A program made the position numbers and the translations under genes. The notes beneath the pieces were generated by a model. The model was not told the origin of the DNA and ran no database searches. It worked only from the letters and a program-made list of their open reading frames with translations. From assembly GCA_026393865.1 (NCBI GenBank), contig JAPKZI010000043.1, positions 20,519 to 84,518 of the forward strand: 64,000 bases of DNA. The letters run 5' to 3'. Origin of the DNA: Candidatus Aminicenantes bacterium (GTDB lineage: Bacteria; Acidobacteriota; Aminicenantia; Aminicenantales; UBA4085). Positions 3,868 to 45,698 of this stretch are shown here, one piece after another. Position 1 is the stretch's first letter. Every line of letters begins with the position of its first letter.

Positions 3868-5055
3868 ATGTCACGCATGAATCGACGGAATTTCGTCACG
3901 GCCATGACGTCGGGCCTGTTCGGTCTCGGCGTTTCGAAACATCTCGGAGCGGAGCCGCTTCATCGCGCTTCAGGACCCCAGGAAGCCGCGACGCCGAAAA
4001 TCAGGAAATACAGGGACCTCGGCAAGACCGGGCTTAAGGTCCCGGACGTCAGCTTCGGCGCGATCTCCCTCTTCGAGCCCAACGTGCTCCGCTACGCCTG
4101 CGAATGCGGCGTCACCTATTTCGACACGGCCGAGAGCTATCTGCGGATGAAGGGCGAGACCTACGTCGGACAAGGCCTCAAAGAAGTCCGCGACAAGGTC
4201 ATCATCACTACCAAGCACGGCCAGAACTTCCGCCAAAAGATCGAGAAGGACGCCTTCATCCAGCGGGTCGAAGCCAGCCTCAAGCGCCTCCAGACCGACC
4301 GCATCGACGTGGCTATGATCCACAATGTCGATGATCTGTCGCTCGCCCTCAACAACCAGGAGCTGATGTCCGCCTACGCCCAACTCAAAAAGGACGGCAA
4401 GGTCCGCTTCACGGGATTTTCGACCCATAACGCCAAGCAGACGCTGAAACAGGCCCTCGACACGGACTTCGCCCAGATCGTCCTGGTCATGTACAACCAT
4501 ATGGAAGGCAAGGAGATCGAGCCGTTAGTCAAGGCCGTCCGGGAAAAGGGCATCGGGACCGTGGCCATGAAGATCTTTGCCGGAGGCATGCAGGGCAACC
4601 TGAAACCGCTGGTCGACCAGCGGACGAGCTATTCTCAGGCCGCCATCCGCTGGGTCTTGAGCAATCCGGATTTCGACACCTGCATCCCGACCATGAGCAG
4701 CTATTCCCATGTCGAGGAATACGTGGGCGCGTCCGGACAGCCCCTGGACCGCGCGGCGCTCCAGACGCTCGCCGTGTATCGGGAAGAAGTGAACAGCGTC
4801 TATTGCCGGGTGAGCTGCCGGGATTGTCTTTCGGCCTGCCCTCACCAGGTCGCGGTCAACGATGTCCTGCGCTTCGCCATGTACTACGAACATTACGGCA
4901 TGGAACGGCAGGCCCTCGATTATTACGCGGAGCTCAAGCCGGAGCGCAAGCCGCTGAACTGCGCCGGGTGCCCGGCGCCGTGCCAGAGCGCCTGTCCCTA
5001 CGGCCTTCAGGTCAGGTCCAAGCTGCTCCGGACGCACGACATTTTATCGGCCTAA
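3868..5055 (+). CDS. Aldo/keto reductase with Tat signal peptide and C-terminal Cys-rich (4Fe-4S-like) domain
   Basis: MSRMNRRNFVTAMTSGLFGLG twin-arginine motif. AKR core (YFDTAESY, ITTK, DVAMIHN). C-terminal CRVSCRDCLSACP and CAGCPAPCQSACP. Confidence 0.85.
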   Translation: MSRMNRRNFVTAMTSGLFGLGVSKHLGAEPLHRASGPQEAATPKIRKYRDLGKTGLKVPDVSFGAISLFEPNVLRYACECGVTYFDTAESYLRMKGETYVGQGLKEVRDKVIITTKHGQNFRQKIEKDAFIQRVEASLKRLQTDRIDVAMIHNVDDLSLALNNQELMSAYAQLKKDGKVRFTGFSTHNAKQTLKQALDTDFAQIVLVMYNHMEGKEIEPLVKAVREKGIGTVAMKIFAGGMQGNLKPLVDQRTSYSQAAIRWVLSNPDFDTCIPTMSSYSHVEEYVGASGQPLDRAALQTLAVYREEVNSVYCRVSCRDCLSACPHQVAVNDVLRFAMYYEHYGMERQALDYYAELKPERKPLNCAGCPAPCQSACPYGLQVRSKLLRTHDILSA

Positions 5056-5132
5056 CTGATTCGAGGGTAAAGGCAACGCCTCTTTTGGGGCAGCCATTCG
5101 GTCAGTCGCGTTATCCTTCCAATCCAAATCAA

Positions 5133-6470: not shown

Positions 6471-6568
6471 TGAATACCCCCAGTTTTCATTGGATCAATT
6501 ATAAAACAAAATTGGGGTGGACGTAACTACTACTTGTAAGAAGAAGAATATCAACTGCAGAAAAAAAT

Positions 6569-6644
6569 TGGCTCCCCGGGCAGGACTCGAACCTACAACC
6601 TATTGGTTAACAGCCAACCGCTCTACCTATTGAGCTACCGGGGA
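6569..6644 (-). tRNA. tRNA-Asn (anticodon GTT), CCA encoded
   Basis: Reverse complement TCCCCGG TA GCTC AATAGGTA GAGC G GTTGG CTGTTAA CCAAT AGGTT GTAGG TTCGAGT CCTGC CCGGGGA G CCA folds as a cloverleaf. The layout parallels E. coli tRNA-Asn. Confidence 0.95.
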
Positions 6645-6772
6645 GCGATCCGGATCAAATTACCATAAACCGACCAGGATTTCAATCTTCGGTCAACCTC
6701 GCTTGGCTGCCCGTTTTGACAAAATGGCGCCTCTATGCTATTTGTGTCCTTCCCTCAAGGAAAGGACCGACC

Positions 6773-8548
6773 ATGACTACGCCGCTTGAACGCTGGGTCG
6801 ACGAACAGGCCCGGCTGTTCCAACCGAAAGAGGTCTACTGGTGCGACGGTTCGGAGGGAGAGGCCCATCGGCTTATCGACAAGGGCATCCGCGAAGAGAA
6901 GATCGGGGCCAACCCCATCTTCCGCGAGTTGAACCACCGAAACTGGCCCAAGTCCTATCTCCACCGCAGCCACCCCACCGACGTCGCCCGGACCGAGCAT
7001 CTGACCTTCGTCTGCCATCCAGAAAGGGAGCAATCCGGCCCGAACAACAATTGGATGGACCCGGCCGAGGCCAAGGCGCGGTTGACGGCGCTGTCCCGGG
7101 GGGGGATGCGCGGACGGACGATGTACGTCCTTCCTTACATGATGGGCCATCCCGATTCCCCCTACGCCCGGCCGTGCATTCAGATCACGGACGTGTCCTA
7201 TGTCGCCGTCAGCATGCGGATCATGACCCGGATGGGCCGGCACACGATCAAGAAGATCGGCAATTCGGAGGCCTTCGTCAAGGGCATCCATTCGGTCGGC
7301 GATTTCGACCCGGAACGGCGGTTCATCATGCATTTCCCGCAGGACAGCCTCGTCTGGAGCATCGGCTCCGGCTACGGCGGCAACGCCCTGCTCGGGAAAA
7401 AATGCTTTTCCCTCCGCATCGCTTCCTATCTCGGCTTGCGCCAGATGTGGCTCGCCGAACACATGGTCATCATCGGTATCGAGGACATCAAGGGGAACGT
7501 GACCTACGTCACGGCGTCGATGCCGTCGGCCTGCGGCAAGACGAACCTGGCCATGATGGAGTCCGCCCTGCCCGAATACAAGGTTTATACCGTCGGCGAC
7601 GACATCGCCTGGATGAATATCGGACCGGACGGCCGGCTCTGGGCCATCAACCCGGAGGCGGGCTTCTTCGGCGTCGCCCCCGGAACGTCGATGAAGACCA
7701 ATCCGAACATGATCCGGACGCTGAAGGCCTCGAACTTCTATCCGACCCTTTTCACCAACGTCGGCCTCGACCTCGACGCCAACGAACCCTGGTGGGAAGG
7801 CCTGGAAGGGCCGCCGAAGAACATGCTGGACTGGCAGGGCAAGCCGTGGGACCCGGCCAAGGGGACGAAAGCGGCCCATCCGAACTCGCGTTTCACCGTC
7901 TCGCTCTATAACTGCCCGACCCTGTCCAAGCAGTTCGACAATCCGCAGGGCGTGCCGATCTCGGCCATCCTGCTCGGCGGCCGCCGCTCGCGGGGCGTTC
8001 CGCTCGTGACCGAAGCCTTCGACTGGAGCCACGGCGTCTTCATGGGAGCCCGGATGGGATCGGAGACGACGGCCGCGGCGGCCGGCCAGGTCGGCGTCCT
8101 GCGCCGCGATCCGTTCGCCATGCTCCCCTTCTGCGGTTACAACATGGGCGACTATTTCCGTCATTGGATCAATATGGGCGGCTTCATCACCAAGCCCCCG
8201 AAGATCTATTCCATCAACTGGTTCCGCACGGACGAGAACGGCAAGTTCCTCTGGCCGGGATTCGGAGATAACATCAGGGTCATCAAATGGATCATCGACC
8301 GGGTGAACGGCAAAGCCCGGGCCAAGGAAACGCCCATCGGACTCGTCCCGGATCTCGACGATTTCGATAGGGACGGCCTGAAGACGTCCCGGCGGGACCT
8401 GGAGAAGCTCTTAGAGGTTAAGCCCGAGGAATGGCGGGACGAGGTTCGGGATATCAAGTCCTTCCTGGACCAGTTCGGCCGGCACGTGCCCTATGAAATG
8501 TGGCAGAACCACGAAACGCTGGCCGCCCGGCTCAAAGCCGGATCCTAA
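6773..8548 (+). CDS. pckG: Phosphoenolpyruvate carboxykinase (GTP)
   Basis: MTTPLERWVDEQARLF...; the ACGKTN kinase-1a loop and WMNIGPDG are typical of GTP-PEPCK. Start trimmed to the ATG at 6773 behind AAGGAAAGGA. Confidence 0.95.
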   Translation: MTTPLERWVDEQARLFQPKEVYWCDGSEGEAHRLIDKGIREEKIGANPIFRELNHRNWPKSYLHRSHPTDVARTEHLTFVCHPEREQSGPNNNWMDPAEAKARLTALSRGGMRGRTMYVLPYMMGHPDSPYARPCIQITDVSYVAVSMRIMTRMGRHTIKKIGNSEAFVKGIHSVGDFDPERRFIMHFPQDSLVWSIGSGYGGNALLGKKCFSLRIASYLGLRQMWLAEHMVIIGIEDIKGNVTYVTASMPSACGKTNLAMMESALPEYKVYTVGDDIAWMNIGPDGRLWAINPEAGFFGVAPGTSMKTNPNMIRTLKASNFYPTLFTNVGLDLDANEPWWEGLEGPPKNMLDWQGKPWDPAKGTKAAHPNSRFTVSLYNCPTLSKQFDNPQGVPISAILLGGRRSRGVPLVTEAFDWSHGVFMGARMGSETTAAAAGQVGVLRRDPFAMLPFCGYNMGDYFRHWINMGGFITKPPKIYSINWFRTDENGKFLWPGFGDNIRVIKWIIDRVNGKARAKETPIGLVPDLDDFDRDGLKTSRRDLEKLLEVKPEEWRDEVRDIKSFLDQFGRHVPYEMWQNHETLAARLKAGS

Positions 8549-9306
8549 AACCGGTAGTTCGCCTGTTTGACGAGGCGGCGGTAGTCCTTCCCCCACATCT
8601 CGACGACTTTGCACATCTCGTAGATCCGCGAGCGCAGGCGGTAACCGATGCGGTCGATCAGGGTGTCATCCCCCTTTTTGTTCATCTCGGTCTTTTTAAA
8701 CATAGGCTGGCGGGGGTCCTCTTCGTCCGCGGTATCGAGGAAGTTCGAGGTGAAGATCGTCATCTTCTTCTGGTTATAGCGGTGGTTGATGATATAAAAA
8801 ACCGTCTCTTCGACCCAAGAGGACGACCGTTTCGCCCCGAGCTCGTCCAGAACGAGCACCTTGCTCTCAAAGACGGGTTCCAGTATATCCGATTCCGACA
8901 GGACGGAATCCGGGGTGAACGTGCTCTGAATGTCCCGGATGAGGTCGCGGAAATCGTAGAACAGGCAGGGCGCGCTTTTTTGCTGCATCAGCTCCCGAAT
9001 GATCGCCACGGCCAGGTGCGTCTTGCCGACGCCGGGGGGACCGATGAAGAGGAGGCCAATCTCCTGGACGGGATAGTTATCGACGATCTTCTTGGAGATC
9101 TTGAGCGCGTCGCGGTGCGAATCGTCGTGGATCTCGAAATTGCCGAGCCCGCATTTTTCGTAGCGTTTCGGGATGCGCGCCTTCTCGAGCAGGGCCCGGC
9201 CCTGGCGCTCGAGGAAACACCGGCAGCGCCGGGCCTCGGAGCGGCCCTCGATGTCCTCGAGGACCCAGCCCGTGTCCTGGCACAGGGAGCAGACAGTTTC
9301 CGTCAT
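8545..9306 (-). CDS. DnaC/IstB-like AAA+ ATPase (putative helicase loader) with N-terminal Cys-rich segment
   Basis: Walker A GPPGVGKTHLA and Walker B VLVLDELG. N-terminal CSLCQDTGW...CRC. The start ATG overlaps the sigma gene stop (TAATG). Confidence 0.8.
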   Translation of the reverse strand: MTETVCSLCQDTGWVLEDIEGRSEARRCRCFLERQGRALLEKARIPKRYEKCGLGNFEIHDDSHRDALKISKKIVDNYPVQEIGLLFIGPPGVGKTHLAVAIIRELMQQKSAPCLFYDFRDLIRDIQSTFTPDSVLSESDILEPVFESKVLVLDELGAKRSSSWVEETVFYIINHRYNQKKMTIFTSNFLDTADEEDPRQPMFKKTEMNKKGDDTLIDRIGYRLRSRIYEMCKVVEMWGKDYRRLVKQANYRF

Positions 9307-10148
9307 TAGTTCAAATATCCTCTCAGCTGCCGGAGCGCGCTCGACCGGGACAGCCGATGCATCGCTTTCTGTTCAATCTGCCGGATGCGTTCGCGTGTCA
9401 GGTGGAGCCGGTCGCCGATCTCCTGGAGCGTCAGGGGCTGGTCGTCGTCCAGCCCGAAACGCAATTTTAACACAAGAGCTTCCTTCTCATCCAATTCCTC
9501 GAGCAGCTCCCGGATCTGGTGCTGGATGGAGCTCTTGATGATCTGGTATTCCACGGAGGGCGAGATCTCGTCGCTGATCTTCTCTTCGATCGCCAGGTCG
9601 TCCTCGTTGAACCTGTCGCTCAGCGAGACATCCTTCGCGGCGAGTATTTCCAGGTCCTCCAAATCGATCGCCGAGATGCCCATGGCCTTGGCGATCTCCT
9701 CGCGGGTCGGCTCCCGCCCCAGTTCGGCCTTCAGTTGGACCGCTTTCCGTTTCATCTGCAGGATCTGGTCCGACAGCTTCTGGGGGATATGGTAAATGCG
9801 CGCCGATTGGGTCAGGGCATGGATGACGGCCTGGCGGATCCACCAGACGGCGTAGGAAATGAACTTGACGTTCCGGTGAGGGTCAAAGCGTTTGGCCGCC
9901 TCGATCAGGCCGAGATTGCCTTCGTTGATGAGGTCGAGGAGGCTCATCCCCATCCCTTGATATTTTTTCACGTAGGAGACCGCGAACCGGAGATTGGCCT
10001 CGATCAGCTCTTTAATCGCCGTGGGATCGCCCTGGTGGATGCGCAGTCCGAGCGTCTTTTCCTGTTCTTCGGTGTGAACCGGGAACTTGGAGATCTGTTC
10101 CAAGTAGAGTCGGAGGTTGCGCGATTCTAAGTAATCCTGGTAGTTCAT
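9306..10148 (-). CDS. RNA polymerase sigma factor, sigma-70 family (RpoD/RpoS-like, 280 aa)
   Basis: Region 2 (EGNLGLIEAAKRFD, ISYAVWWIRQAV), region 3, and region 4.2 (LTLQEIGDRLHLTRERIRQIEQKAMHRL). Confidence 0.9.
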   Translation of the reverse strand: MNYQDYLESRNLRLYLEQISKFPVHTEEQEKTLGLRIHQGDPTAIKELIEANLRFAVSYVKKYQGMGMSLLDLINEGNLGLIEAAKRFDPHRNVKFISYAVWWIRQAVIHALTQSARIYHIPQKLSDQILQMKRKAVQLKAELGREPTREEIAKAMGISAIDLEDLEILAAKDVSLSDRFNEDDLAIEEKISDEISPSVEYQIIKSSIQHQIRELLEELDEKEALVLKLRFGLDDDQPLTLQEIGDRLHLTRERIRQIEQKAMHRLSRSSALRQLRGYLN

Positions 10149-11826: not shown

Positions 11827-13755
11827 TCAATTTTTCTTGCCGTCGTCCACGACCTCGGCGTCGATGACCTCGCCTTCGTCGCTCCCGGACTTGTTCCCGC
11901 CCGGGCCCTTCGACTCCTGCGGCTCCGCGCCGCTCCCGGGCTGGGCCTGCTCCTGGGAAGCCTGCTGGTACATCATCTCGGTCAACTTGTGCGAAGCCCG
12001 GGTGAGGCTTTCCGTGGCTTGCTTGATCCGGTCGAGGTTTTCACTTTCGATGGCCTTCTTGGTGTTCTCGATCTCAGTCCGGACCTTCTCGGCCTCGGCC
12101 TCGGGGACCCGCTCCTTGTTTTCGCGAAGGAGTTTTTCCAGGCTATAGACGAGCTGGTCGGCCTGGTTCTTAGCGTCGATCATTTCCCGCCGCTTCTTGT
12201 CTTCGGCGGAGTGGGATTCGGCATCCTTGACCATGCGGTCGATCTCCTTTTGGTCGAGCCCGCTGTGGCCGGTGATCGTGATGGCCTGCTGTTTGCCGGT
12301 CCCTATGTCCTTGGCCGTGACATGGAGAATGCCGTTGGCGTCGATATCGAAGGTGACCTCGATTTTGGGCACGCCCCGGGGAGCCGGGGGAATGCCGTCG
12401 AGATGAAACCGCCCCAAGGTCCGGTTGGCACTGGCCATCTCCCGTTCGCCCTGGAGGACGTGGATCTCGACGCTCGGCTGGCTGTCCGACGCCGTCGAGA
12501 AGACCTCGGTCTTCTTAGTCGGGATGGTCGTGTTCCGGGCGATCATCTTGGTGAAGACGCTACCGAGGGTCTCGATGCCCAGGGTCAGCGGGGTCACGTC
12601 GAGAAGCAGGACGTCCTTGACGTCGCCGGACAGGACGGCGCCCTGGATGGCGGCGCCGACAGCGACGACCTCGTCCGGGTTGACGCCCTTGTGAGGCTCC
12701 TTGCCGAAAAGGTCCTTGACCAGCTGCTGGATGCGGGGCATGCGAGTCTGACCGCCGACGAGGATGGCCTCGTCGATATCGGAAGCCTTCATGTTGGCGT
12801 CGGCCAAGGCCTGCTTAACGGGGGCCACGGACCTTTGGATCAGATCTTCCACCAGCTGTTCGAGCTTGGCCCGGGTTATCTTCATCAGAAGGTGCTTCGG
12901 GCCGGAGGCGTCGGCGGTGACGAAGGGCAGGTTGATCTCGGTCTCCATCGTCGTCGACAGCTCGATCTTGGCCTTTTCCGCGGCCTCTTTGAGCCGCTGG
13001 ATGGCCATCTTGTCCTTGGACAGGTCGATCCCCGATTCCTTCTTGAACTCGGTCACGATCCAGTCCTGGACCCGCTGGTCGATATCGTCGCCGCCCAAGT
13101 GGGTATCGCCGTTGGTCGACTTGACCTCGACGACCCCCTCGCCCACCTCGAGGATGGAGATATCGAACGTGCCGCCGCCGAAGTCATAGACGGCGATGGT
13201 CTGGTCCTTTTTCTTGTCCATGCCGTAGGACAGGGCGGCCGCGGTCGGTTCATTGATGATGCGGACGACCTCCAATCCGGCGATCGTGCCGGCGTCCTTG
13301 GTCGCTTTCCGCTGGCTGTCGTTGAAATACGCGGGGACGGTGATGACCGCCTTTTCGACCTTTTCGCCGAGATAATCCTCAGCTGCCTTTTTCAGCTTCT
13401 GGAGGATGAGGGCGGAGATCTCCGGAGGAGAGAACTTCTTGCCCAGGGTCTCGACCCTGACGTCTCCGTTGGGAGCTTCAGCGACTTTGAAGGGGACCTG
13501 CTTGATCTCTTCCGGAACCTCCTGATATCGGCGTCCCATGAATCTTTTAATGGAATAGACGGTATTTTCCGGATTGGTGACTCTTTGACGTTTAGCTACC
13601 TGGCCGACCAAACGTTCGCCTTTGGCCGTGAAAGCGACAACGGAAGGTGTTGTCCGTCCGCCTTCCTCATTGGGTATGACTGTCGGATTGTCGCCTTCCA
13701 TGACGGCGACCACCGAATTTGTCGTTCCTAAATCGATTCCAATAATTTTTGCCAT
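11827..13755 (-). CDS. dnaK: Molecular chaperone DnaK (Hsp70)
   Basis: [21 protein letters not shown]..., full-length Hsp70, 642 aa. AGGAGG RBS. Confidence 0.98.
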
Positions 13756-13780
13756 AATTTCCTCCTATTTTAGTACGAAT

Positions 13781-13811
13781 ACAATATAAAATATTAGCAT
13801 ATTGTTGTCAA
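13781..13811 (-). promoter_or_regulatory. dnaK promoter TTGACA-N17-TATATT, overlapped by inverted repeat ACAATAT-N11-ATATTGT
   Basis: -35 at 13806-13811, -10 at 13783-13788, IR at 13781-13805. It sits inside a ~140-bp strikingly AT-rich tract (13756-13899) with TGTAAATA-like direct repeats. Confidence 0.6.
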
Positions 13812-13899
13812 GTTTTATTTACAATTTATATTACATTATATTTACATTATTTTTAATAAGATATAAAGAGATGATTTCTGCCAGGCCGATATTTCGTAA

Positions 13900-14553
13900 C
13901 TATCGGCTCGGCTGAAAGATCAGCGTACTATGTCCATCTAGGAACGACCAATAGATCGCTTGGGCGTCCTTTTCGCTGGGCATGACCAACTCTATTTCCG
14001 TGAAACTCTTTTTTCTCAGGGCGAACCAAAGAGTTTTTAGAGGCAGAATGGTATGCCAAGAAATGGTTTTTCCAACATTTAAAAGCGTCGGCCAAAAGCG
14101 CTTTGTCCTTGGTTTGACCGAGATGTGCACGTTTTGTCCGAAATGAAGGCTGAAGTGAACAGGCATATCCTTCAATTCTAGAACGCCCAGGTCGGACGAA
14201 TCCTTCTTTTCCTTGTCCGTCGTTTTTTGATCTTCCTTGCCGGGAGTTATGTTCGGCCGTTCCGGTTGCGACAAGGCGCTTTTCTTTTCCATCTTGAAGA
14301 CTTTAAGAGGGACGCTTTTTCCCCAGGAACGCGTCCTGGCGATGGTCCATTTTCGAAGGACCTGGCCTCTTGCCTTCAAGGAGACCGTTCGCTCCCCGAT
14401 ATCGATGATCATATACGTCCCGGGAATCTTGGCCAGGGAAAGCTCCGCCTCAAAAAACCGGTTCTTTTCGAAGAGATCAGCCCTCTCCTGGGCATAACCA
14501 GAAAGCACTCCGGCCACGACCAAGGTCAGGACGAGAGGCGAGCTTTTTTTCAT
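13900..14553 (-). CDS. Hypothetical secreted protein (no catalytic motif seen)
   Basis: 217 aa with a signal peptide (MKKSSPLVLTLVVAGVLSGYAQ). Visibly lower GC than its neighbours. Last gene of the L,D-transpeptidase cluster. Confidence 0.65.
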   Translation of the reverse strand: MKKSSPLVLTLVVAGVLSGYAQERADLFEKNRFFEAELSLAKIPGTYMIIDIGERTVSLKARGQVLRKWTIARTRSWGKSVPLKVFKMEKKSALSQPERPNITPGKEDQKTTDKEKKDSSDLGVLELKDMPVHFSLHFGQNVHISVKPRTKRFWPTLLNVGKTISWHTILPLKTLWFALRKKSFTEIELVMPSEKDAQAIYWSFLDGHSTLIFQPSR

Positions 14554-14563
14554 CTTTTCGGCG

Positions 14564-15211
14564 TCAATAGATATAGATCTTGGCTCCTATGGGAACCCAA
14601 TGGAAGACCTCTTCCAGATCCTTGTCTCCTACCCGGACGCAGCCATGGGTGACGTTACGTCCCAGCAATCTGGTATAAAGCGTCCCGTGAATGAAGAACC
14701 CGTCGCCGAATCCAAGAGCGTAAGCGCCGAGCGAATCGTTGTCGATGCGCTCGTTGAAATTGGCCGGCGGCTTCTCCCCTTCCTCGATGAACGCCCAGTC
14801 CGGCTTGATCCAGGTTGGATTGACGAGCTTGGACGTGACGCTGAATTCGCCGCGCGGCGTGTCGAAGATCCATTTCCGTTTTCCTCCCGTTTCCTCGAGG
14901 ATATCGCCCGAACCGCAGGACACGACAACCTCTTTCTGGACCTTTTCGCCGTTCATGACATAGAGCCGGTTCTCGGCCGTATCGACGACGATAAAGAGCC
15001 CTCTTGTGGCCAATGCTTTTAGCCGACCGGCCAAAGACGCGTTCTGCGATTGAAGCTCTTTCGGGCTTTTTATCGCGGCCGTTCGTCCGGTCTCTCCGGC
15101 CGGTTTCCGCGACCATCCGAAGATTTCGATCCCGTATCCGATCAATTCGCAACCGACCAGAAGTCCGGCAAGGACGATCAACGCCAAGGGCCAGCCTCTC
15201 ATCTTAGTCAT
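14564..15211 (-). CDS. L,D-transpeptidase (YkuD domain) lipoprotein
   Basis: Lipobox LLVGC. Catalytic signature FFIHGT...NVTHGCVRV. Confidence 0.85.
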   Translation of the reverse strand: MTKMRGWPLALIVLAGLLVGCELIGYGIEIFGWSRKPAGETGRTAAIKSPKELQSQNASLAGRLKALATRGLFIVVDTAENRLYVMNGEKVQKEVVVSCGSGDILEETGGKRKWIFDTPRGEFSVTSKLVNPTWIKPDWAFIEEGEKPPANFNERIDNDSLGAYALGFGDGFFIHGTLYTRLLGRNVTHGCVRVGDKDLEEVFHWVPIGAKIYIY

Positions 15212-40011: not shown

Positions 40012-40115
40012 GGTCAAGGGACGAGCCTTCGGCTCGCCACTCGCCCGTGGCTTTAATTCACGGGCGAGTACGGCGGAAGTGGACCCCCGGGTAAAGCCCG
40101 GGGCCCGGCCGCCGT
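40012..40115 (+). repeat. Three-hairpin repeat element, copy A (104 nt, intergenic)
   Basis: ~90% identical to 45449-45553. Stems CGAGC/GCTCG, CTCGCCCGTG/CACGGGCGAG (10 bp) and CCCCGGG/CCCGGGG (7 bp). Confidence 0.85.
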
Positions 40116-40182
40116 TGATATTCGCGCCTGTTTCCGTTATAATCAAGTGCTTTTAACGGAACCGGCAGGGAAAGCCGACGTC

Positions 40183-41229
40183 ATGAAGATCAATGTCTGG
40201 AACACCATTTTGCAGCTGAGCAAGGAGCGAGGCGTCGAGCCGTCCCTCATCATCAGCGCCATCCAGGAATCGCTCAAGGTCGCCGCCTCCAAATATTACA
40301 CGCGGAACGAGGACATCCACGTCGACTTCCGGCCGGAAAAAGGCGAGCTCCGGGTTTACGCGCTCAAGCGGGTGGTCGAACATCCCGCCTCCCCCGCCCG
40401 GGAGATCTCCCTGGAGGAGGCCCGGCAGATGAACCCCGCGGCGGCCGTCGACGACGCCGTCGAGACCGATCTCCCCTCCGACACGCTGGGCCGGATCGCC
40501 GCTCAGGCCGCCAAACAGGTGATCTTCCAGAAGGTCCGGGACGCGGAACAGGAAAAGATTTACGGCGAGTTCGCTTCGCGGCTGGGCGAGATCATCATGG
40601 GCGTCTATCGGCGCGAAGAAAACGACGCGATCATCCTCGAGGTCAACAAGACCGACGTCCTCTTCCCCTTCCGCGAAAAGCTTTTCAACGAGGACTTCAG
40701 GCGAGGCGACCAGATCCGGGCGGTGATCGTCCAGGTCAAAAAGGGCTATAAAGGCGCGGATCCGCAAGTCATCGTCTCCCGGACGAGCCCCAAGTTCCTG
40801 GAAAAGCTCCTCGAACTCGAGATCCCCGAGATCGCCAACGGCGCGATCGAGATCAAGGACATCGTCCGGCAGCCCGGCGAACGGGCCAAGGTGGCCGTGG
40901 CGACCCGGGAACGCGATGTCGACCCCGTCGGGGCCTGCATCGGCGTCAAGGGCGGCCGCATCCTGGCCGTCAGCAAGGAGCTGGCCGGAGAGAAGATCGA
41001 CATCATCATCTGGTCTCCCAATCCCCTGAGCTACGCCAAGGCCGCCCTCAGCCCGGCGCGCGTCGAGAACATGATCGTCCTCGACAATATCGAGAAGACG
41101 ATGCAGGCGATCGTGACCAGGGACCAGTTGTCCCTGGCCATCGGCAAGAAGGGGATCAACGTGAAGCTGGCTTCAAAGCTCGTCGGCTGGAGGATCGGGA
41201 TCCAACAGCCACCCCCTGAATCAACATAG
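40183..41229 (+). CDS. nusA: Transcription termination/antitermination factor NusA (no C-terminal AR repeats)
   Basis: [31 protein letters not shown]..., followed by S1 and two KH regions. The track ORF begins at the GTG at 40147. Confidence 0.93.
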
Positions 41230-41243
41230 AAAAGGAACGTCCA

Positions 41244-43043
41244 TTGACGGAAACTAAGATTATTAAAACGACCAAGACGACCAAGGACGGCCCTAAGGCC
41301 CGGCCGGTGATCCTTCTCCGTGAAGGGTCGACCGTGAAGGAGCTGGCGGCCAAGCTGAAGGCCCGGCCAAAGGATATCCTGGAGAAGCTGGCGGCGAAGG
41401 GTTTCAGCCTGAGCGTCAACGACGTCATCGACGAAGCGTTCGCCGCCAAGGTCGCGGCGACCCTCGGCATCGTGCTCGAGAGCGTTTCCGTCGAAAAGGA
41501 GATGCGGAAGCTCGCCGAGAGCAAGAAGGCGGACCTCGTGACGCGGCCCCCGGTCGTGACGATCATGGGCCATGTCGACCATGGCAAAACGACGCTGCTC
41601 GACGCCATCCGCTCCTCGAACCTCGTCGACAAGGAATCGGGCGGCATCACCCAGCACATCGGCGCCTACCAGGTCGTCCACAACAAACGGCCGATCACTT
41701 TCATCGACACGCCGGGCCACGAGGCGTTCACCCAGCTCCGCGCGCGCGGGGCGAAGGTCACCGACATCGTCGTCCTGGTCATCGCTGCCGACGAAGCGGT
41801 GATGCCCCAGACCAAGGAGGCCATCAGCCACGCCAAAGCCGCCGGAGTCCCGATGATCGTCGCCATCAATAAGATCGACAAGCCCGAGGCCAATCCGGAC
41901 AAAATCAAAAGGGAGCTGCAGAAGGAAAATGTTCTCGTCGAGGAATGGGGCGGCGACGTCATCAGCGTCGCGGTCTCGGCCAAAGACAAAAAGAACATCA
42001 AGGAGCTCCTGGAAATGATCCTGCTCCTGGCCGACGTCATCGAGATCAAGGCCAATCCCAAAGGGAAGGCGCAGGGGTTCGTCCTCGAGGCACGCCTCGA
42101 CGCGAAGAAGGGCCCTCTTGCGACCGTGATCATCCAGAATGGAACGTTGTCCGTGGGCCAAGCCTTCCTGTCAGGGACGACTTTCGGCAAGGTCCGCGCG
42201 CTCAACGACGAACACGGCCGCGGGCTGAAAGCCGCTGGACCTTCGACCCCCGTCGAGATCCTCGGATTCTCCGGGGTGCCTCAGGCGGGCGATTTCTTCC
42301 TCGTGCTCGACAGCCAAGAGGAAGCCAGGGCCGTCGCCGAATATCGTCTCTCCCGCGCGTCGAAGGGCGCCGCCCAAAAACCTGGACAGGTCACGCTTGA
42401 CGACCTTTTTAAGAAGATCGAAGCGGGAGAATCCAAGGAGCTGCCCATCATCCTCAAGGCCGACGTCCAAGGCTCGGTCGAGGTCTTGACCGGGCTTCTT
42501 CCCTCCCTCGGCACGGAGAAAGTGAAAATCAGGATCATCCAGGCCATGACCGGATCGATCACGGAGTCGGACATCCTCCTCGCCTCGACCTCGAAGGCCA
42601 TCATCCTCGGCTATAACGTCAAGCCCGGTCCCAAGATCCAAGATCTGGCTCAGAAGGAGAACGTCCAGGTCCTGTCCTACAAGATCATCTACCAGCTGAC
42701 GGACGACATTAAAAAGGCCGTGGCGGGTATGCTTGAACCCGTCATCAAAGAGACCTACCTGGGCCGCGCCCAGGTCCGCAAGATCTTCAGGATCCCCAAG
42801 GTCGGCGTCATCGCCGGAAGTTATGTCCAGGACGGCAAAATCGTGCGCAACGCGGAGGTCAAAGTCCTCCGGAATAAGGAGGTCGTCTTCAAGGGCCGGA
42901 TCGCCTCGTTGAAGCACCTGAAGGAGAACGTGACCGAGGTCAAAAAGGACCTGGAATGCGGCATCGGACTGGACCGGTTCAAGGAGTTCCAAGAAGGCGA
43001 CCTGATCGAGGCTTTCATCACCGAAAAGGTCTATCAGTCCTAG
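41244..43043 (+). CDS. infB: Translation initiation factor IF-2 (short N-terminus, apparent TTG start)
   Basis: [20 protein letters not shown] and NKID GTPase motifs. 599 aa. Confidence 0.95.
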
Positions 43044-43058
43044 CCGGGGACGGGGACC

Positions 43059-43340
43059 ATGGTCATCGGCTATCTCGAACTGGACCTTCATTTCCCTCAC
43101 GCCCGGTCCCTCAAGGACAAACGCAAGGAACTCAACGGGCTCAAGGATCGCATCCGCCGGAAACACAACGTCGCCCTGGCCGAGCTTGACTTTCAGGACG
43201 TCTGGCAGCGGACGAAGATCGGCGTAGTGACTCTCAACAGCCACCAGACCATCGTCGAGCAGGTCCTGTCTCGGATCCGGTCCGACGTTTTCGAGAATGT
43301 CAACGGCGAACTTCTGAGCTCCCGGATCGAGTATTATTAG
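43059..43340 (+). CDS. DUF503 (YlxP-like) protein
   Basis: MVIGYLELDLHFPHARSLKDKR... Same position as B. subtilis ylxP, between infB and rbfA. Confidence 0.8.
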   Translation: MVIGYLELDLHFPHARSLKDKRKELNGLKDRIRRKHNVALAELDFQDVWQRTKIGVVTLNSHQTIVEQVLSRIRSDVFENVNGELLSSRIEYY

Positions 43341-43345
43341 GGTCC

Positions 43346-43708
43346 ATGAAAGACGAGAGCCGGCGACAGAAGAAAATCGGCAGCCTGCTTCTTGAGGCGC
43401 TCAGCCCGATCCTCATCCAGGAGCTTCTCGGCGTAACGACCGTCCTCGTGACCGTGACGCGCGTGGACGTTCCCGCCGACCTCAAAACCGCTCATGTTTT
43501 TCTCAGCGTCTTCGGCCCCGGCGATCCCGCCCCGATCTTCGCTCATCTCGAACGGAGGACGGGGTTCATCCGCAAGCGTCTTGCCTCCACGGTCAAACTA
43601 AAGTATAATCCCATGCTATTTTTCAGCCTGGATCCGACCGCGGACATGAGCGAACGGATCGACCGGCTTCTTCGGACGACCAGGACCGATGGACACGACG
43701 CCTCTTGA
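43346..43708 (+). CDS. rbfA: Ribosome-binding factor A
   Basis: 120 aa, KKIGSLLLEALSPIL...VTVTRVDVPADLKTAHVF. Confidence 0.88.
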   Translation: MKDESRRQKKIGSLLLEALSPILIQELLGVTTVLVTVTRVDVPADLKTAHVFLSVFGPGDPAPIFAHLERRTGFIRKRLASTVKLKYNPMLFFSLDPTADMSERIDRLLRTTRTDGHDAS

Positions 43709-44678
43709 CCTCATCGTCAAAAAAATCTCCGCCAGCCGCCGCTTGGCCATCACCAGTCACCTCCGGCCCGACGGCGATTCTTTGTGCACCAGCCTGGCCC
43801 TGTCCTTCGCCGCCGAGGCCATGGGCAAAGAGGCGGACATCTTCAACACGGACCGAACGCCCGTCCCGTTCCAGGCCTTTCCCGATGCCGCCAGAATCCG
43901 GATCGGACAGATCCCGCCAGGGATCTACGACGCGGTCATCCTTCTCGAATGCGCCGACGTCTCCAGGTCCGGCCACGAGCACCTCGACCGCTATTTCAAG
44001 ATCAATATCGATCATCACTATTCGAACGACCGCTATGCCGACATCAACTGGGTCGATCCGGCGGCTTCGGCCGTCGCGGAGATGGCCTTTGACCTTTGCC
44101 AAAAGCTGCCGCTGCGCCTGACCCCGCGGATCGCCGGCCACCTGTACTGCGCGATCGTATCGGACACGGGCTCCTTCCAGTTCTCGAACACGACGGCCAA
44201 GTGTTTCGCGGTCTGCCACGCCCTTGTCGAAGCCGGCGCGGAGCCCAACCGGACGAGCGAAGCCCTTTTCCATAATAACCCTCCCGAAAAAATCAAGCTC
44301 CTGGGACGGGTCCTGTCCACCCTCGAACTCAGCCGGGACGGCGCCATCGCCATGATCCATTTGTTCAAAAAGGACCTCCGGAGCTTGAACCTGCGCGAGA
44401 TCGACACGGAAGACATCACCACGCTGACCCGTTCGATCAAGGGCGTGAACGTCGTCCTTTTCTTCAAGGAGATGGACCCTGACGTCTTCCGCGTCAGCAT
44501 CCGATCCAAGGGGACCGCCCACGCCGCGGCGATCGCCGAGCATTTCGGCGGGGGCGGTCACGCCCATGCCGCGGGATTCACGGTCTACGGCCCGTTCGAG
44601 GAGCTGATCAAAGGCGTGCCCGCGACCGTCGAGAAACTCCTCGGCGAGATGGCCCCCGGGCGCGCGACCACGACGTGA
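43689..44678 (+). CDS. nrnA: DHH/DHHA1 phosphoesterase (NrnA-like)
   Basis: HLRPDGDSL, NIDHHYSN and GGGHAHAAG motifs. Confidence 0.85.
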   Translation: MDTTPLDLIVKKISASRRLAITSHLRPDGDSLCTSLALSFAAEAMGKEADIFNTDRTPVPFQAFPDAARIRIGQIPPGIYDAVILLECADVSRSGHEHLDRYFKINIDHHYSNDRYADINWVDPAASAVAEMAFDLCQKLPLRLTPRIAGHLYCAIVSDTGSFQFSNTTAKCFAVCHALVEAGAEPNRTSEALFHNNPPEKIKLLGRVLSTLELSRDGAIAMIHLFKKDLRSLNLREIDTEDITTLTRSIKGVNVVLFFKEMDPDVFRVSIRSKGTAHAAAIAEHFGGGGHAHAAGFTVYGPFEELIKGVPATVEKLLGEMAPGRATTT

Positions 44679-44681
44679 TGA

Positions 44682-45698
44682 ATGGACGGTCTGATCCTCG
44701 TCCGCAAACCCGTTCCCGCGACTTCCCATGATGTCGTTGCGGCGCTTCGGAAGATCCTGAATCAAAAAAAGATCGGCCACTTCGGGACCCTGGATCCGCT
44801 GGCCTCCGGCCTTCTCCTTGCCGCCGTCGGAAAGGCCACGCGGCTGTTCCCCTTCTACAGCAAAATGGACAAGATCTACGAAGGCCGTATCCGCCTGGGC
44901 TTTTCGACCGATACGTTCGATGCCGCCGGCCATCCCACCTCTCCGGCCTGCGATATTTTTCCCGACCGCCCCGCGGTCGAGGAAGTCCTTCGGGATTTCG
45001 AGGGAGAGATCACCCAGATCCCACCTCCCTATTCGGCGAAAAAGGTCGGGGGAATACCCCTTTATACCTACGCCCGCCGGAAAACGCCTGTCGACGGTCG
45101 TCCGTTCCAGGTGCGGGTCCACTCCTTCGAACTCCTGGGGTACGTCGCCCCGCATATCGATTTCGTGGTGAAGTGCGGCTCGGGAACCTATATCCGGACC
45201 CTGGCCCATGACCTCGGCCAAAGGCTGGGATGCGGAGCCCACCTTGCAGGGCTCGTCCGGACCGGGATCGGCGAATTCAGCCTGAAGGACGGTCTGACGT
45301 TGGAGGAGATCCGGGGTTTTCAGGAGATGGGCGCGACCGGGAGATTCCTTCTACCCATGGAATCGCTCCTGCCTTCTTTGGCCATGATCAAAGTCAGCGA
45401 AGAAGGCGTTCAATGGATCCGGAACGGCCGACCGGTCTCGGCCGAACAGGTCAAGGGACGAGCCTTCGGCTCGCCACTCGCCCGTGACTTCTATCCACGG
45501 GCGAGTACGGCGGAAGCTGACCCCCGGGCTATGCCCGGGGCCCCGGCCGCCGTCGAGGACGCCGAGGGGAACGGGCCTCCGGTCCTCCGCGATGATCCGA
45601 CGATCATCGTCCGGGTCTTCAGCCCGGACGGCCGGCTGATCGCCCTGGCCCGCCCCGCCGCTTTTCCCGGCCATTTCGCGCCTTTCCTCGTCCTTTAA
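44682..45698 (+). CDS. truB: tRNA pseudouridine(55) synthase TruB carrying a 35-codon repeat-derived insertion
   Basis: GLILVRKPVPATSHDVV...GHFGTLDPLASGLL catalytic Asp motif. 338 aa. Confidence 0.92.
   Translation: MDGLILVRKPVPATSHDVVAALRKILNQKKIGHFGTLDPLASGLLLAAVGKATRLFPFYSKMDKIYEGRIRLGFSTDTFDAAGHPTSPACDIFPDRPAVEEVLRDFEGEITQIPPPYSAKKVGGIPLYTYARRKTPVDGRPFQVRVHSFELLGYVAPHIDFVVKCGSGTYIRTLAHDLGQRLGCGAHLAGLVRTGIGEFSLKDGLTLEEIRGFQEMGATGRFLLPMESLLPSLAMIKVSEEGVQWIRNGRPVSAEQVKGRAFGSPLARDFYPRASTAEADPRAMPGAPAAVEDAEGNGPPVLRDDPTIIVRVFSPDGRLIALARPAAFPGHFAPFLVL
45449..45553 (+). repeat. Three-hairpin repeat element, copy B (105 nt, in frame inside truB)
   Basis: Same three stems as copy A. Encodes VKGRAFGSPLARDFYPRASTAEADPRAMPGAPAAV. 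Confidence 0.85.

Follow-up and report, generated by a model that had tools for sequence, protein, structure and literature searches.

To our knowledge, in-frame selfish DNA within proteins has mostly been regarded as peculiar to Rickettsia, with scattered cases elsewhere. The Rickettsia palindromic elements RPE-1 to RPE-10 (Ogata et al. 2000, 2002; reviewed in PMC10969869) are described as palindromic repeats fused in frame with many unrelated genes. Here we describe a repeat family of the Aminicenantes (Acidobacteriota), one copy of which sits inside truB, the gene for tRNA pseudouridine-55 synthase, of a Candidatus Aminicenantes bacterium. The window analysed is a 64,000-nt stretch of this genome, and all positions are counted from its first letter. 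The truB block is very probably a copy of a selfish, REP/MITE-like palindromic family that is tolerated, and presumably translated, in coding DNA, with RPE-like behaviour. The family is Aminicenantes-specific, dispersed, non-autonomous and hairpin-forming, and it is undescribed before as far as the searched literature shows: our search brought up no account of such repeats in Aminicenantes.

Like the RPEs, the family is a dispersed hairpin-forming repeat of ~100–150 nt with a large share of its copies in frame within unrelated housekeeping or metabolic genes. It likewise seems to have no transposase of its own and adds its peptide at a fold-compatible position, here for TruB alone and by prediction. 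The first-pass annotation of this DNA had drawn the parallel with RPEs; it holds for behaviour (in-frame, palindromic and tolerated) and implies no relatedness in sequence. The hosts are free-living, GC-rich, uncultured Aminicenantes, whereas those of the RPEs are AT-rich obligate intracellular alphaproteobacteria, and the 39-nt modules, nested copies and clear (G)GT|BGA target of the Aminicenantes family also set it apart. About 24% of its copies lie in genes, whereas for some RPE families the share is nearly half.

Other described repeats share parts of this anatomy. Short imperfect palindromes, the lack of terminal inverted repeats and a high copy number are common to the Aminicenantes family, to the REP/BIME repeats moved by RAYT and to IS200/IS605-derived palindromes; all are also mosaics of a few hairpin modules, with a short conserved sequence beside the hairpin and clean-looking empty sites. 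Unlike REPs, which are extragenic by definition, Aminicenantes copies are often genic, and a conserved 3′ flank such as BGA is not known for the IS200/IS605/RAYT mechanism. Classical MITEs (Correia/NEMIS, ERIC, RUP, BOX and the Coxiella QMITEs) are similarly small and non-autonomous and show occasional in-frame ORF fusions (PMC10969869, PMC5896051), among them those of the QMITEs with host ORFs (PMC5896051). BOX elements are modular as well, and classical MITEs can carry or abut promoters. The Aminicenantes family differs from classical MITEs in that it has no terminal inverted repeats and a 2-nt ambiguous duplication only, and in that mid-gene in-frame insertion is frequent, not exceptional. 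Mitochondrial GC-rich hairpin clusters, such as the yeast GC clusters in var1 and the coding palindromes of Nematomorpha, also place palindromes in coding genes with the frame kept, but these are organellar and unrelated in sequence. In Nematomorpha, moreover, the palindromes are long, perfect inverted repeats that do not form a dispersed modular family (PMC6649704).

Results

Two repeat copies in the nusA–truB cluster

The window carries the gene cluster nusA-infB-DUF503-rbfA-DHH/DHHA1-truB, which holds two copies of the repeat, both oriented along transcription. The features of the two sites are as follows.

40015–40115, plus strand: second copy of the repeat, 101 nt net and non-coding, flanked by a radical-SAM (MiaB-like) gene and nusA
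40115–40143, plus strand: nusA promoter, sigma-70-like, TTGATA-17-TATAAT (11/12 matches against 0.1 expected in shuffles)
40183–41229, plus strand: nusA, first gene of the cluster (ORF list; Pfam domains of the syntenic L002–L005)
44682–45698, plus strand: truB, tRNA pseudouridine-55 synthase, 338 aa, open through the insert (ORF, domains, structure)
45450–45451, plus strand: target GT, seen again at 45552–45553, where the element ends (the empty site of L096 reads CAG GT CGCGGAC)
45452–45553, plus strand: net truB insertion, 102 nt, CAAGGGAC...GGCCGCCGT (filled against empty alleles, family alignment, size classes)
45456–45475, plus strand: hairpin 1, GG.CGAGCC / TTC / GGCTCGCC (97% of cells paired over 23 copies)
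45476–45506, plus strand: hairpin 2, ACTCGCCCGTG / 9-nt loop / CACGGGCGAGT (two pairs with compensatory changes)
45507–45553, plus strand: hairpin 3, outer stem ACGGCGG/CCGCCGT, inner stem CCCCGGGC/GCCCGGGG (folding and stem conservation)

A repeat of ~90% identity had been claimed for 45449–45553 and 40012–40115. It is present as placed: by alignment, 45450–45553 in truB and 40013–40115 upstream of the nusA promoter are 91% identical, with one 1-nt indel. A 38-nt probe taken from the block matches the window exactly twice, with any match in 0 of 100 dinucleotide shuffles, and an nhmmer family profile run over the 64 kb finds these two copies and no further one. Each copy folds into three hairpins (ΔG of −65 and −67 kcal/mol), with z near −5.5 on either strand. 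Hairpin 2 together with GCTCGCC makes up an optional 39-nt module, the size classes of the family stepping by 39 nt, and the 3′ end of the element is the foot of hairpin 3. Rfam returned nothing meaningful, either for the whole window at gathering thresholds or for the element at E up to 5.

At nusA, element and promoter overlap by one base, with which the element ends and which is the first T of the promoter, so that the −35 hexamer is rebuilt by the GT repeat; the empty site reads ...GGTTGATATT. This copy is one C short of the canonical 102 nt. The indel (CCCC in truB, CCC upstream of nusA) had been taken as what keeps truB in frame; the 1-nt difference is real, but its direction is the reverse, since the multiple-of-3 length is canonical and it is the intergenic copy that lost a C.

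Relative to the family consensus, the two window copies differ by 11 substitutions, 10 of them in unpaired columns (binomial 2e-4), and the 11th, a C to T in a stem, keeps a G.U pair. The copies have no common derived changes against the consensus, and local hopping, with one window copy as parent of the other, was rejected on this ground. They lie 5–6% off the consensus, yet a strain diverged by 1.6% is without them. This would fit a source copy that had already diverged, fast mutation of the loops, or insertions of greater age than they appear to have.

Filled and empty alleles

That strain is represented by a metagenome contig, L096, which is 98.4% identical in DNA across nusA–truB and is without both copies, with clean junctions. 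The nearest public TruB relatives (P0001–P0006) are 92–95% identical and 304 aa long, and the segment is absent from them. The alleles read as follows, with the inserted element in brackets.

truB site, empty: GAACAG GT CGCGGAC
truB site, filled: GAACAG GT[CAAGGG...GCCGCCGT]CGAGGAC
nusA-upstream site, empty (L002, L003, L005): CTCGTTG GT TGATATT
nusA-upstream site, filled (window, L004): ...G GT[CAAGGG...GCCGCCGT]TGATATT

The nusA-upstream site is also empty in L096, with TT where other strains have GT, and L004 carries a different variant. Comparison of filled and empty truB alleles places the insertion point at codon 257, GT|CG after ...SAEQ. Because GT (of a GTC codon) is common to target and element, the insertion adds 102 nt net and so 34 codons, not the 35 extra codons first counted from the repeat; likewise, the length without the insert, put at 303 aa, is 304 aa in the nearest relatives. 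The GT at 45450–45451 is either a 2-bp target duplication or the result of insertion 3′ of a GT by an element that ends in GT. The insertion is the long form of the family; its peptide is KGRAFGSPLARDFYPRASTAEADPRAMPGAPAAV, and the peptides predicted from the filled truB allele read ...PVSAEQVKGRAFGSPLAR and ...PGAPAAVEDAEGNGPPVLR.

In the ortholog alignment that the first-pass annotation had proposed, the 34 aa are absent from orthologs 92–98% identical, including the strain with 98.4% DNA identity. A 35-aa segment conserved at the protein level with no nucleotide repeat elsewhere, named beforehand as the contrary outcome, was not seen. Three truB alleles carry inserts and all are open: the insert of the window is 102 nt long, that of L058 141 nt and that of L001 129 nt, the last being the 141-nt form minus 12 nt, an in-frame deletion.

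The insert in the TruB protein

The 338-aa product keeps both Pfam domains of TruB, TruB_N (6.7e-45) and TruB_C_2 (2.2e-12), the latter being C-terminal and PUA-type. In the PUA domain, the insert follows ...NGRPVSAEQ and precedes the VRVFSPDGRLIALAR strand, in a stretch already variable in length and sequence among relatives. In Thermotoga maritima TruB this stretch has only ~9 residues (query 258–309 corresponds to 254–264 of chain 1r3e_A; the query matches 1r3e at 4e-46). An AlphaFold2 model built from a 60-sequence alignment has a mean pLDDT of 85.9 and falls below 50 only at residues 265–301, and it superposes on solved TruB structures (2ab4, 1r3e) with target-normalised TM-scores of 0.87–0.89. 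The prediction, a check that the first-pass annotation had also proposed, gives a low-confidence PUA-domain stretch that looks like a surface loop on an otherwise intact TruB fold. The insert is thus predicted to enlarge an already variable PUA-domain loop between two beta-strands, leaving the catalytic domain and the PUA fold intact, and we infer that it is translated as a tolerated, disordered surface loop of 34 residues.

The repeat family

The 20-nt head of the element, searched against one genome per species, returned 90 stretches, nearly all in ~10 Aminicenantes bins; one bin contributes 35 of the stretches listed and another 17. The few head matches in other phyla were discarded as chance, the rest of the element being absent. 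Related genomes, in which the first-pass annotation had proposed to count copies, hold a multi-copy repeat with many more in-frame insertions in unrelated genes. The head sequence has no copy in viral contigs, and ARAGORN and Rfam revealed no clear tRNA- or tmRNA-like host gene at L014 and L030.

Each element consists of an almost invariant 19-nt head, GTCAAGGGACGAGCCTTCG, followed by at least one 39-nt hairpin unit and a tail, ...CCCCGGCCGCCGT. Ends were delimited by iterative 11-mers and the tail motif, 10-mers being unsuited as they repeat by chance in GC-rich DNA. The two ends, GTCAAGGGAC... and ...GGCCGCCGT, are not reverse complements, and the element therefore has no terminal inverted repeats. 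Counted with both GTs, the size classes are 65 (n = 19), 104 (n = 22), 143 and 182 nt, with composites of 131, 167 and 245 nt. The corresponding net lengths (63, 102, 141 and 180 nt for the main classes; 129, 165 and 243 nt for the composites) are all multiples of 3 with a 39-nt step, and because the units are 39 nt (13 codons), every common form is frame-neutral. The stems are kept across the family, with 96% of cells paired and compensatory changes at three pairs.

The insertion target is sharp. GT directly precedes the CAAGGG head in 114 of 118 cases, and the terminal GT is followed by B (not A), then by G at +2 in 66/67 and A at +3 in 50/67, which defines the target as (G)GT|BGA with a 2-nt GT ambiguity. 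In L008, L019, L023, L043 and L089, a complete long form is nested at AAGT|GGAC inside a short form; these nested copies are direct evidence of mobility. The consensus is stop-free in 5 of 6 frames. A search with a 61-aa composite peptide matched 77 short 'hypothetical proteins' lying over repeat copies and no large host proteins, and so provides no census of genic insertions.

In-frame insertions in other genes

By a codon-usage score, ~18 of 75 complete copies (~24%) are flanked on both sides by coding signal in a shared frame. Genic hosts were confirmed by Pfam domains on either side of the insert or spanning it, and include the following.

L048: glutamate-synthase-like oxidoreductase, insert between Fer4_20 and Pyr_redox_2
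L038: dihydrolipoamide-dehydrogenase-like protein, insert within Pyr_redox_2
L079: ABC protein, two inserts, between ABC_membrane and ABC_tran
L031: ABC-F protein, insert in the linker
L029: PilZ/receiver domains upstream of the insert, methyltransferase downstream
L033: GH28 glycoside hydrolase
L080: alpha-L-rhamnosidase
L090: GH38 enzyme, insert within GH38C
L072: insert within Radical_SAM
L036: histidine kinase
L045 and L041: M28 and M14 peptidases

Further inserts lie close to the N-terminus of Era (L008) and of HypD (L089).

In-frame insertion into genes is a habit of the family, and TruB is not a one-off. Without exception, genic copies have lengths divisible by 3 and are open in the frame of their host. 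None of the 14 copies with any other length is genic (Fisher p = 0.017), and the nusA copy of the window is one of these 14. The frame VKGRAF...AEVDPRAKPGAPAA-V is used by ~12 genic copies, where the phase of GT-B-GA sites in coding DNA predicts 33%; the frame TAAGAPGFARGS...KARPL-T, on the other strand, is used by 4 (6% predicted), and GGRGPGLCPG... by 3 (45% predicted). Frame use therefore departs from what the phase of the target predicts, and the surviving frames, small as the numbers are, have probably been filtered by the effect of the peptide on the host protein.

Repeated occupancy of the same sites

The truB codon is also filled in a second lineage (P0007/L001/L058; TruB ~83% identical), with a different module make-up, and the relatives of that lineage, P0008 and P0009, are empty there. 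The nusA-upstream base is filled by another variant in L004, whose lineage is ~95% identical in DNA to that of the window, and strains with identical TruB are empty. The 10-kb region contains 65 GGT-B-G and 238 GT-B-G sites, so that two coincidences are unlikely under random choice. A simple one-off random insertion does not predict this repeated occupancy. It could reflect a hot spot, the small number of places that tolerate an insert, or an old insertion followed by exact loss and by overwriting through gene conversion.

In the last case the insertion would predate the split of the lineages, a transposase would have excised it exactly in most of them, gene conversion would have overwritten it in the rest, and the window allele would be a survivor. 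The truB codon and the nusA base, each filled in two lineages and each with empty close relatives, are consistent with such a history. So are the vertical inheritance in lineage B, where L001 and L058 are 96.5% identical and both filled, the 5–6% distance of the window copies from the consensus, and the TT of L096 at the nusA site, which could be an excision scar. However, the variants at a shared site differ by ~20%, against ~5% for their flanks, and in module make-up; several independent exact deletions would be needed; and the 98.4%-identical strain is without both copies. As few positions in essential genes tolerate an insert, a re-hit of one of the 65 GGT-B-G sites is also less improbable than at first sight. 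We consider an old insertion unlikely, while giving it real weight.

Discussion

The empty alleles, the multi-copy family and the intact predicted fold support the original proposal of a selfish or structured element tolerated within a gene. A copy that enters a tolerant region of a gene would cause neither a frameshift nor a truncation of the protein, and for this reason could persist. In the window genome, a long-form copy entered truB at codon 257, as the filled and empty alleles show, and would be read through by the ribosome as 34 residues. Selection would act solely on the open frame, and the palindromes would be kept by the machinery that moves or copies the element. The element is most likely without function for the cell.

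As to how the family moves, a single-strand route of the IS200/IS605 or REP–RAYT type would fit better than that of a classical DDE-type MITE, because there are no inverted repeats, hairpins stand at both ends, the target is short and asymmetric, and the empty sites are apparently clean. Conservation of the BGA 3′ flank is not predicted by an IS200/IS605-type mechanism, and the GT left flank is conserved as well. A tblastn search for an autonomous partner or transposase, with IS200 TnpA and E. coli RayT as approximate queries against ~800 kb of related DNA, gave none at E below 0.1. Integron attC sites, Xer/dif, IS110 with bridge RNA and group II introns were set aside by reasoning from the end sequences, which are unlike these.

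The 39-nt frame-neutral units, a machinery recognising (G)GT|BGA, exact empty sites, repeated occupancy of the same codon and peptide-selected frames might together mark a second, independent origin of 'protein-coding palindromes', this time among free-living bacteria of a GC-rich phylum, a suggestion to which we give slightly less than an even chance. RPE-like behaviour is in any case now seen at high frequency in an abundant uncultured phylum of sediment and soil. Alleles with and without the insert at 98% identity, together with the nested copies and the sharply defined target, make the data tractable for questions of movement and of protein tolerance. The elements could also supply new disordered protein loops.

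Recruitment of the repeat by the cell, either as an RNA-level signal for processing, pausing or stability in the nusA–truB operon or as a peptide that gives TruB a new property, appears improbable. Both window copies lie in one operon along the direction of transcription, their hairpins are very stable, and the C to T change in a stem keeps its G.U pair only in plus-strand RNA; the departure of genic frame use from the target-motif prediction hints at peptide selection. Yet near-identical strains are without both copies, the nusA copy is upstream of the promoter and thus outside the nusA mRNA, and identical elements occur within unrelated genes, facing either way, as well as between genes. The element has no Rfam match, its peptide is predicted to be disordered, and the frame bias is equally explained if some frames are less harmful than others.

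A tolerated, translated selfish element also accounts for the frames better than an insert that escapes translation, through ribosomal bypass (as in Magnusiomyces mitochondria or phage T4 gene 60) or through removal from the mRNA. The compact, very stable GC-rich hairpin cluster within a coding region is reminiscent of such cases, and the bypassed elements of yeast mitochondria are also mobile GC-rich hairpins. However, all genic copies are multiples of 3 and stop-free in the frame of the host, including the three truB alleles and the 12-nt in-frame deletion, and this strict frame keeping contradicts bypass and splicing alike, because either would lift the constraint on frame. A self-splicing intron is further opposed by the length of 102 nt, which is far too short, and by the lack of a match to any RNA family. 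We regard an untranslated insert as highly improbable.

An assembly artefact, in which a high-copy repeat was wrongly threaded into truB during metagenome assembly, would fit two observations: in k = 141 assemblies the repeats often lie ~120–140 nt short of where a stretch ends, a sign that they may break contigs, and in an exact-protein look-up the 338-aa TruB has no record and the filled truB allele of the window is in no independent assembly. It is, however, very hard to reconcile with junctions that are exact, in frame and at the usual GT|BG target of the family, with private loop substitutions in the truB copy in place of the consensus, and with independent assemblies from other samples (L001, JGI; L058, a GenBank bin) that are filled at the very same codon. 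Assemblies may nevertheless break within the repeats, and gene callers name them as dozens of small hypothetical proteins.

The nusA-upstream and truB insertion sites

Upstream of nusA, where the window carries an intergenic copy of the hairpin repeat (40013-40115), the corresponding site is empty in L096, a strain 98.4% identical to the window in DNA, and reads CGTCG TT TGATATT (L096 1432-1434). More distant strains have GT at this empty site, as opposed to the TT of L096, which would be a point mutation or possibly an excision scar. In the window, the nusA promoter (predicted, 40115-40143) adjoins the repeat copy, whose terminal T also serves as base 1 of the promoter's -35 hexamer, TTGATA. 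As predicted from these bases, the promoter is rebuilt, not destroyed, by the insertion. The nusA-upstream copy of a related stretch (L004 1921-2061) contains approximately 37 additional nucleotides within the loop of hairpin 3; this extra piece holds its own small palindrome (ATTCGC TCT GCGAAT) and is also present in other copies (L016, L017, and L025).

The second copy in the window lies in frame within truB, in an operon whose genes are arranged as follows:

Window 41244-44678 and L002 (a related stretch) 6563-9997: nusA, infB, DUF503 gene, rbfA, DHH/DHHA1 (NrnA-like) phosphoesterase gene, truB, in operon order.

Two DUF507 genes follow downstream of truB. The codon directly 3′ of the truB insert (window 45554-45556) is GAG (Glu), whereas all empty relatives and the other filled alleles have GCG (Ala) at this position. 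The change from GCG to GAG makes the 3′ flank in the window an exact match to the GT|CGA target consensus. L002 also carries an insertion sequence, comprising a DDE_Tnp_1 transposase and a DUF6788 gene, between epimerase and PKD-domain genes (13040-15015). Neither the window nor L001 has this insertion sequence at the corresponding position, and it is not related to the hairpin repeat.

Modular and truncated copies

A single ABC-transporter gene in L079 (2467-2790) contains two in-frame inserts of the family, separated by approximately 20 codons. The second begins at the hairpin-2 unit and lacks the 19-nt head, and therefore single hairpin units of the repeat may be able to move or recombine independently. 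One truncated copy, on the reverse strand of L061 (approximately 5043-5100), consists of the head and CGGCGGAGG only, and is bordered on both sides by approximately 25 nt of host sequence in two diverged versions, CAGCGGAGGTTCAAGAACGAAGGCC and CAGCAGAAGTTTAAAAACGAAGGCC.

In the alignment of family copies (A3), one subfamily (L014, L034, L092, and L094) is altered on both sides of one outer-stem pair, at columns 60 and 103, where T replaces G on the 5′ side and C on the 3′ side (ACTGCGG...CCGCTGT). This double change creates a T.T mismatch, leaving the pair uncompensated; what it reflects may be not base pairing but the way a protein or guide recognizes the element.

tRNA-like neighbors, annotations, and assemblies

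A sequence resembling the 3′ half of a tRNA (GGTTCAAGTCCTCTATCGCCCACCA) directly follows a family copy in L030 (3297-3443) and in L014 (reverse strand, approximately 6900-7060). In L030, ARAGORN reports an unusual “tRNA-Ala” of 94 nt overlapping the repeat copy; Rfam gave no match. The element could thus lie within a gene resembling a tRNA or tmRNA, or the arrangement could be what remains of an attachment site.

In public annotations of Aminicenantes bins, dozens of “hypothetical proteins” of 40-107 aa (P0121-P0197; locus tags Q8O91_...) are plain translations of the repeat and look like annotation artefacts. In k=141 assemblies, many copies (L012, L022, L027, L043, L051, L071, and others) are separated from the end of the sequence stretch by approximately 120-140 nt, as would be expected were the repeat a point at which contigs break.
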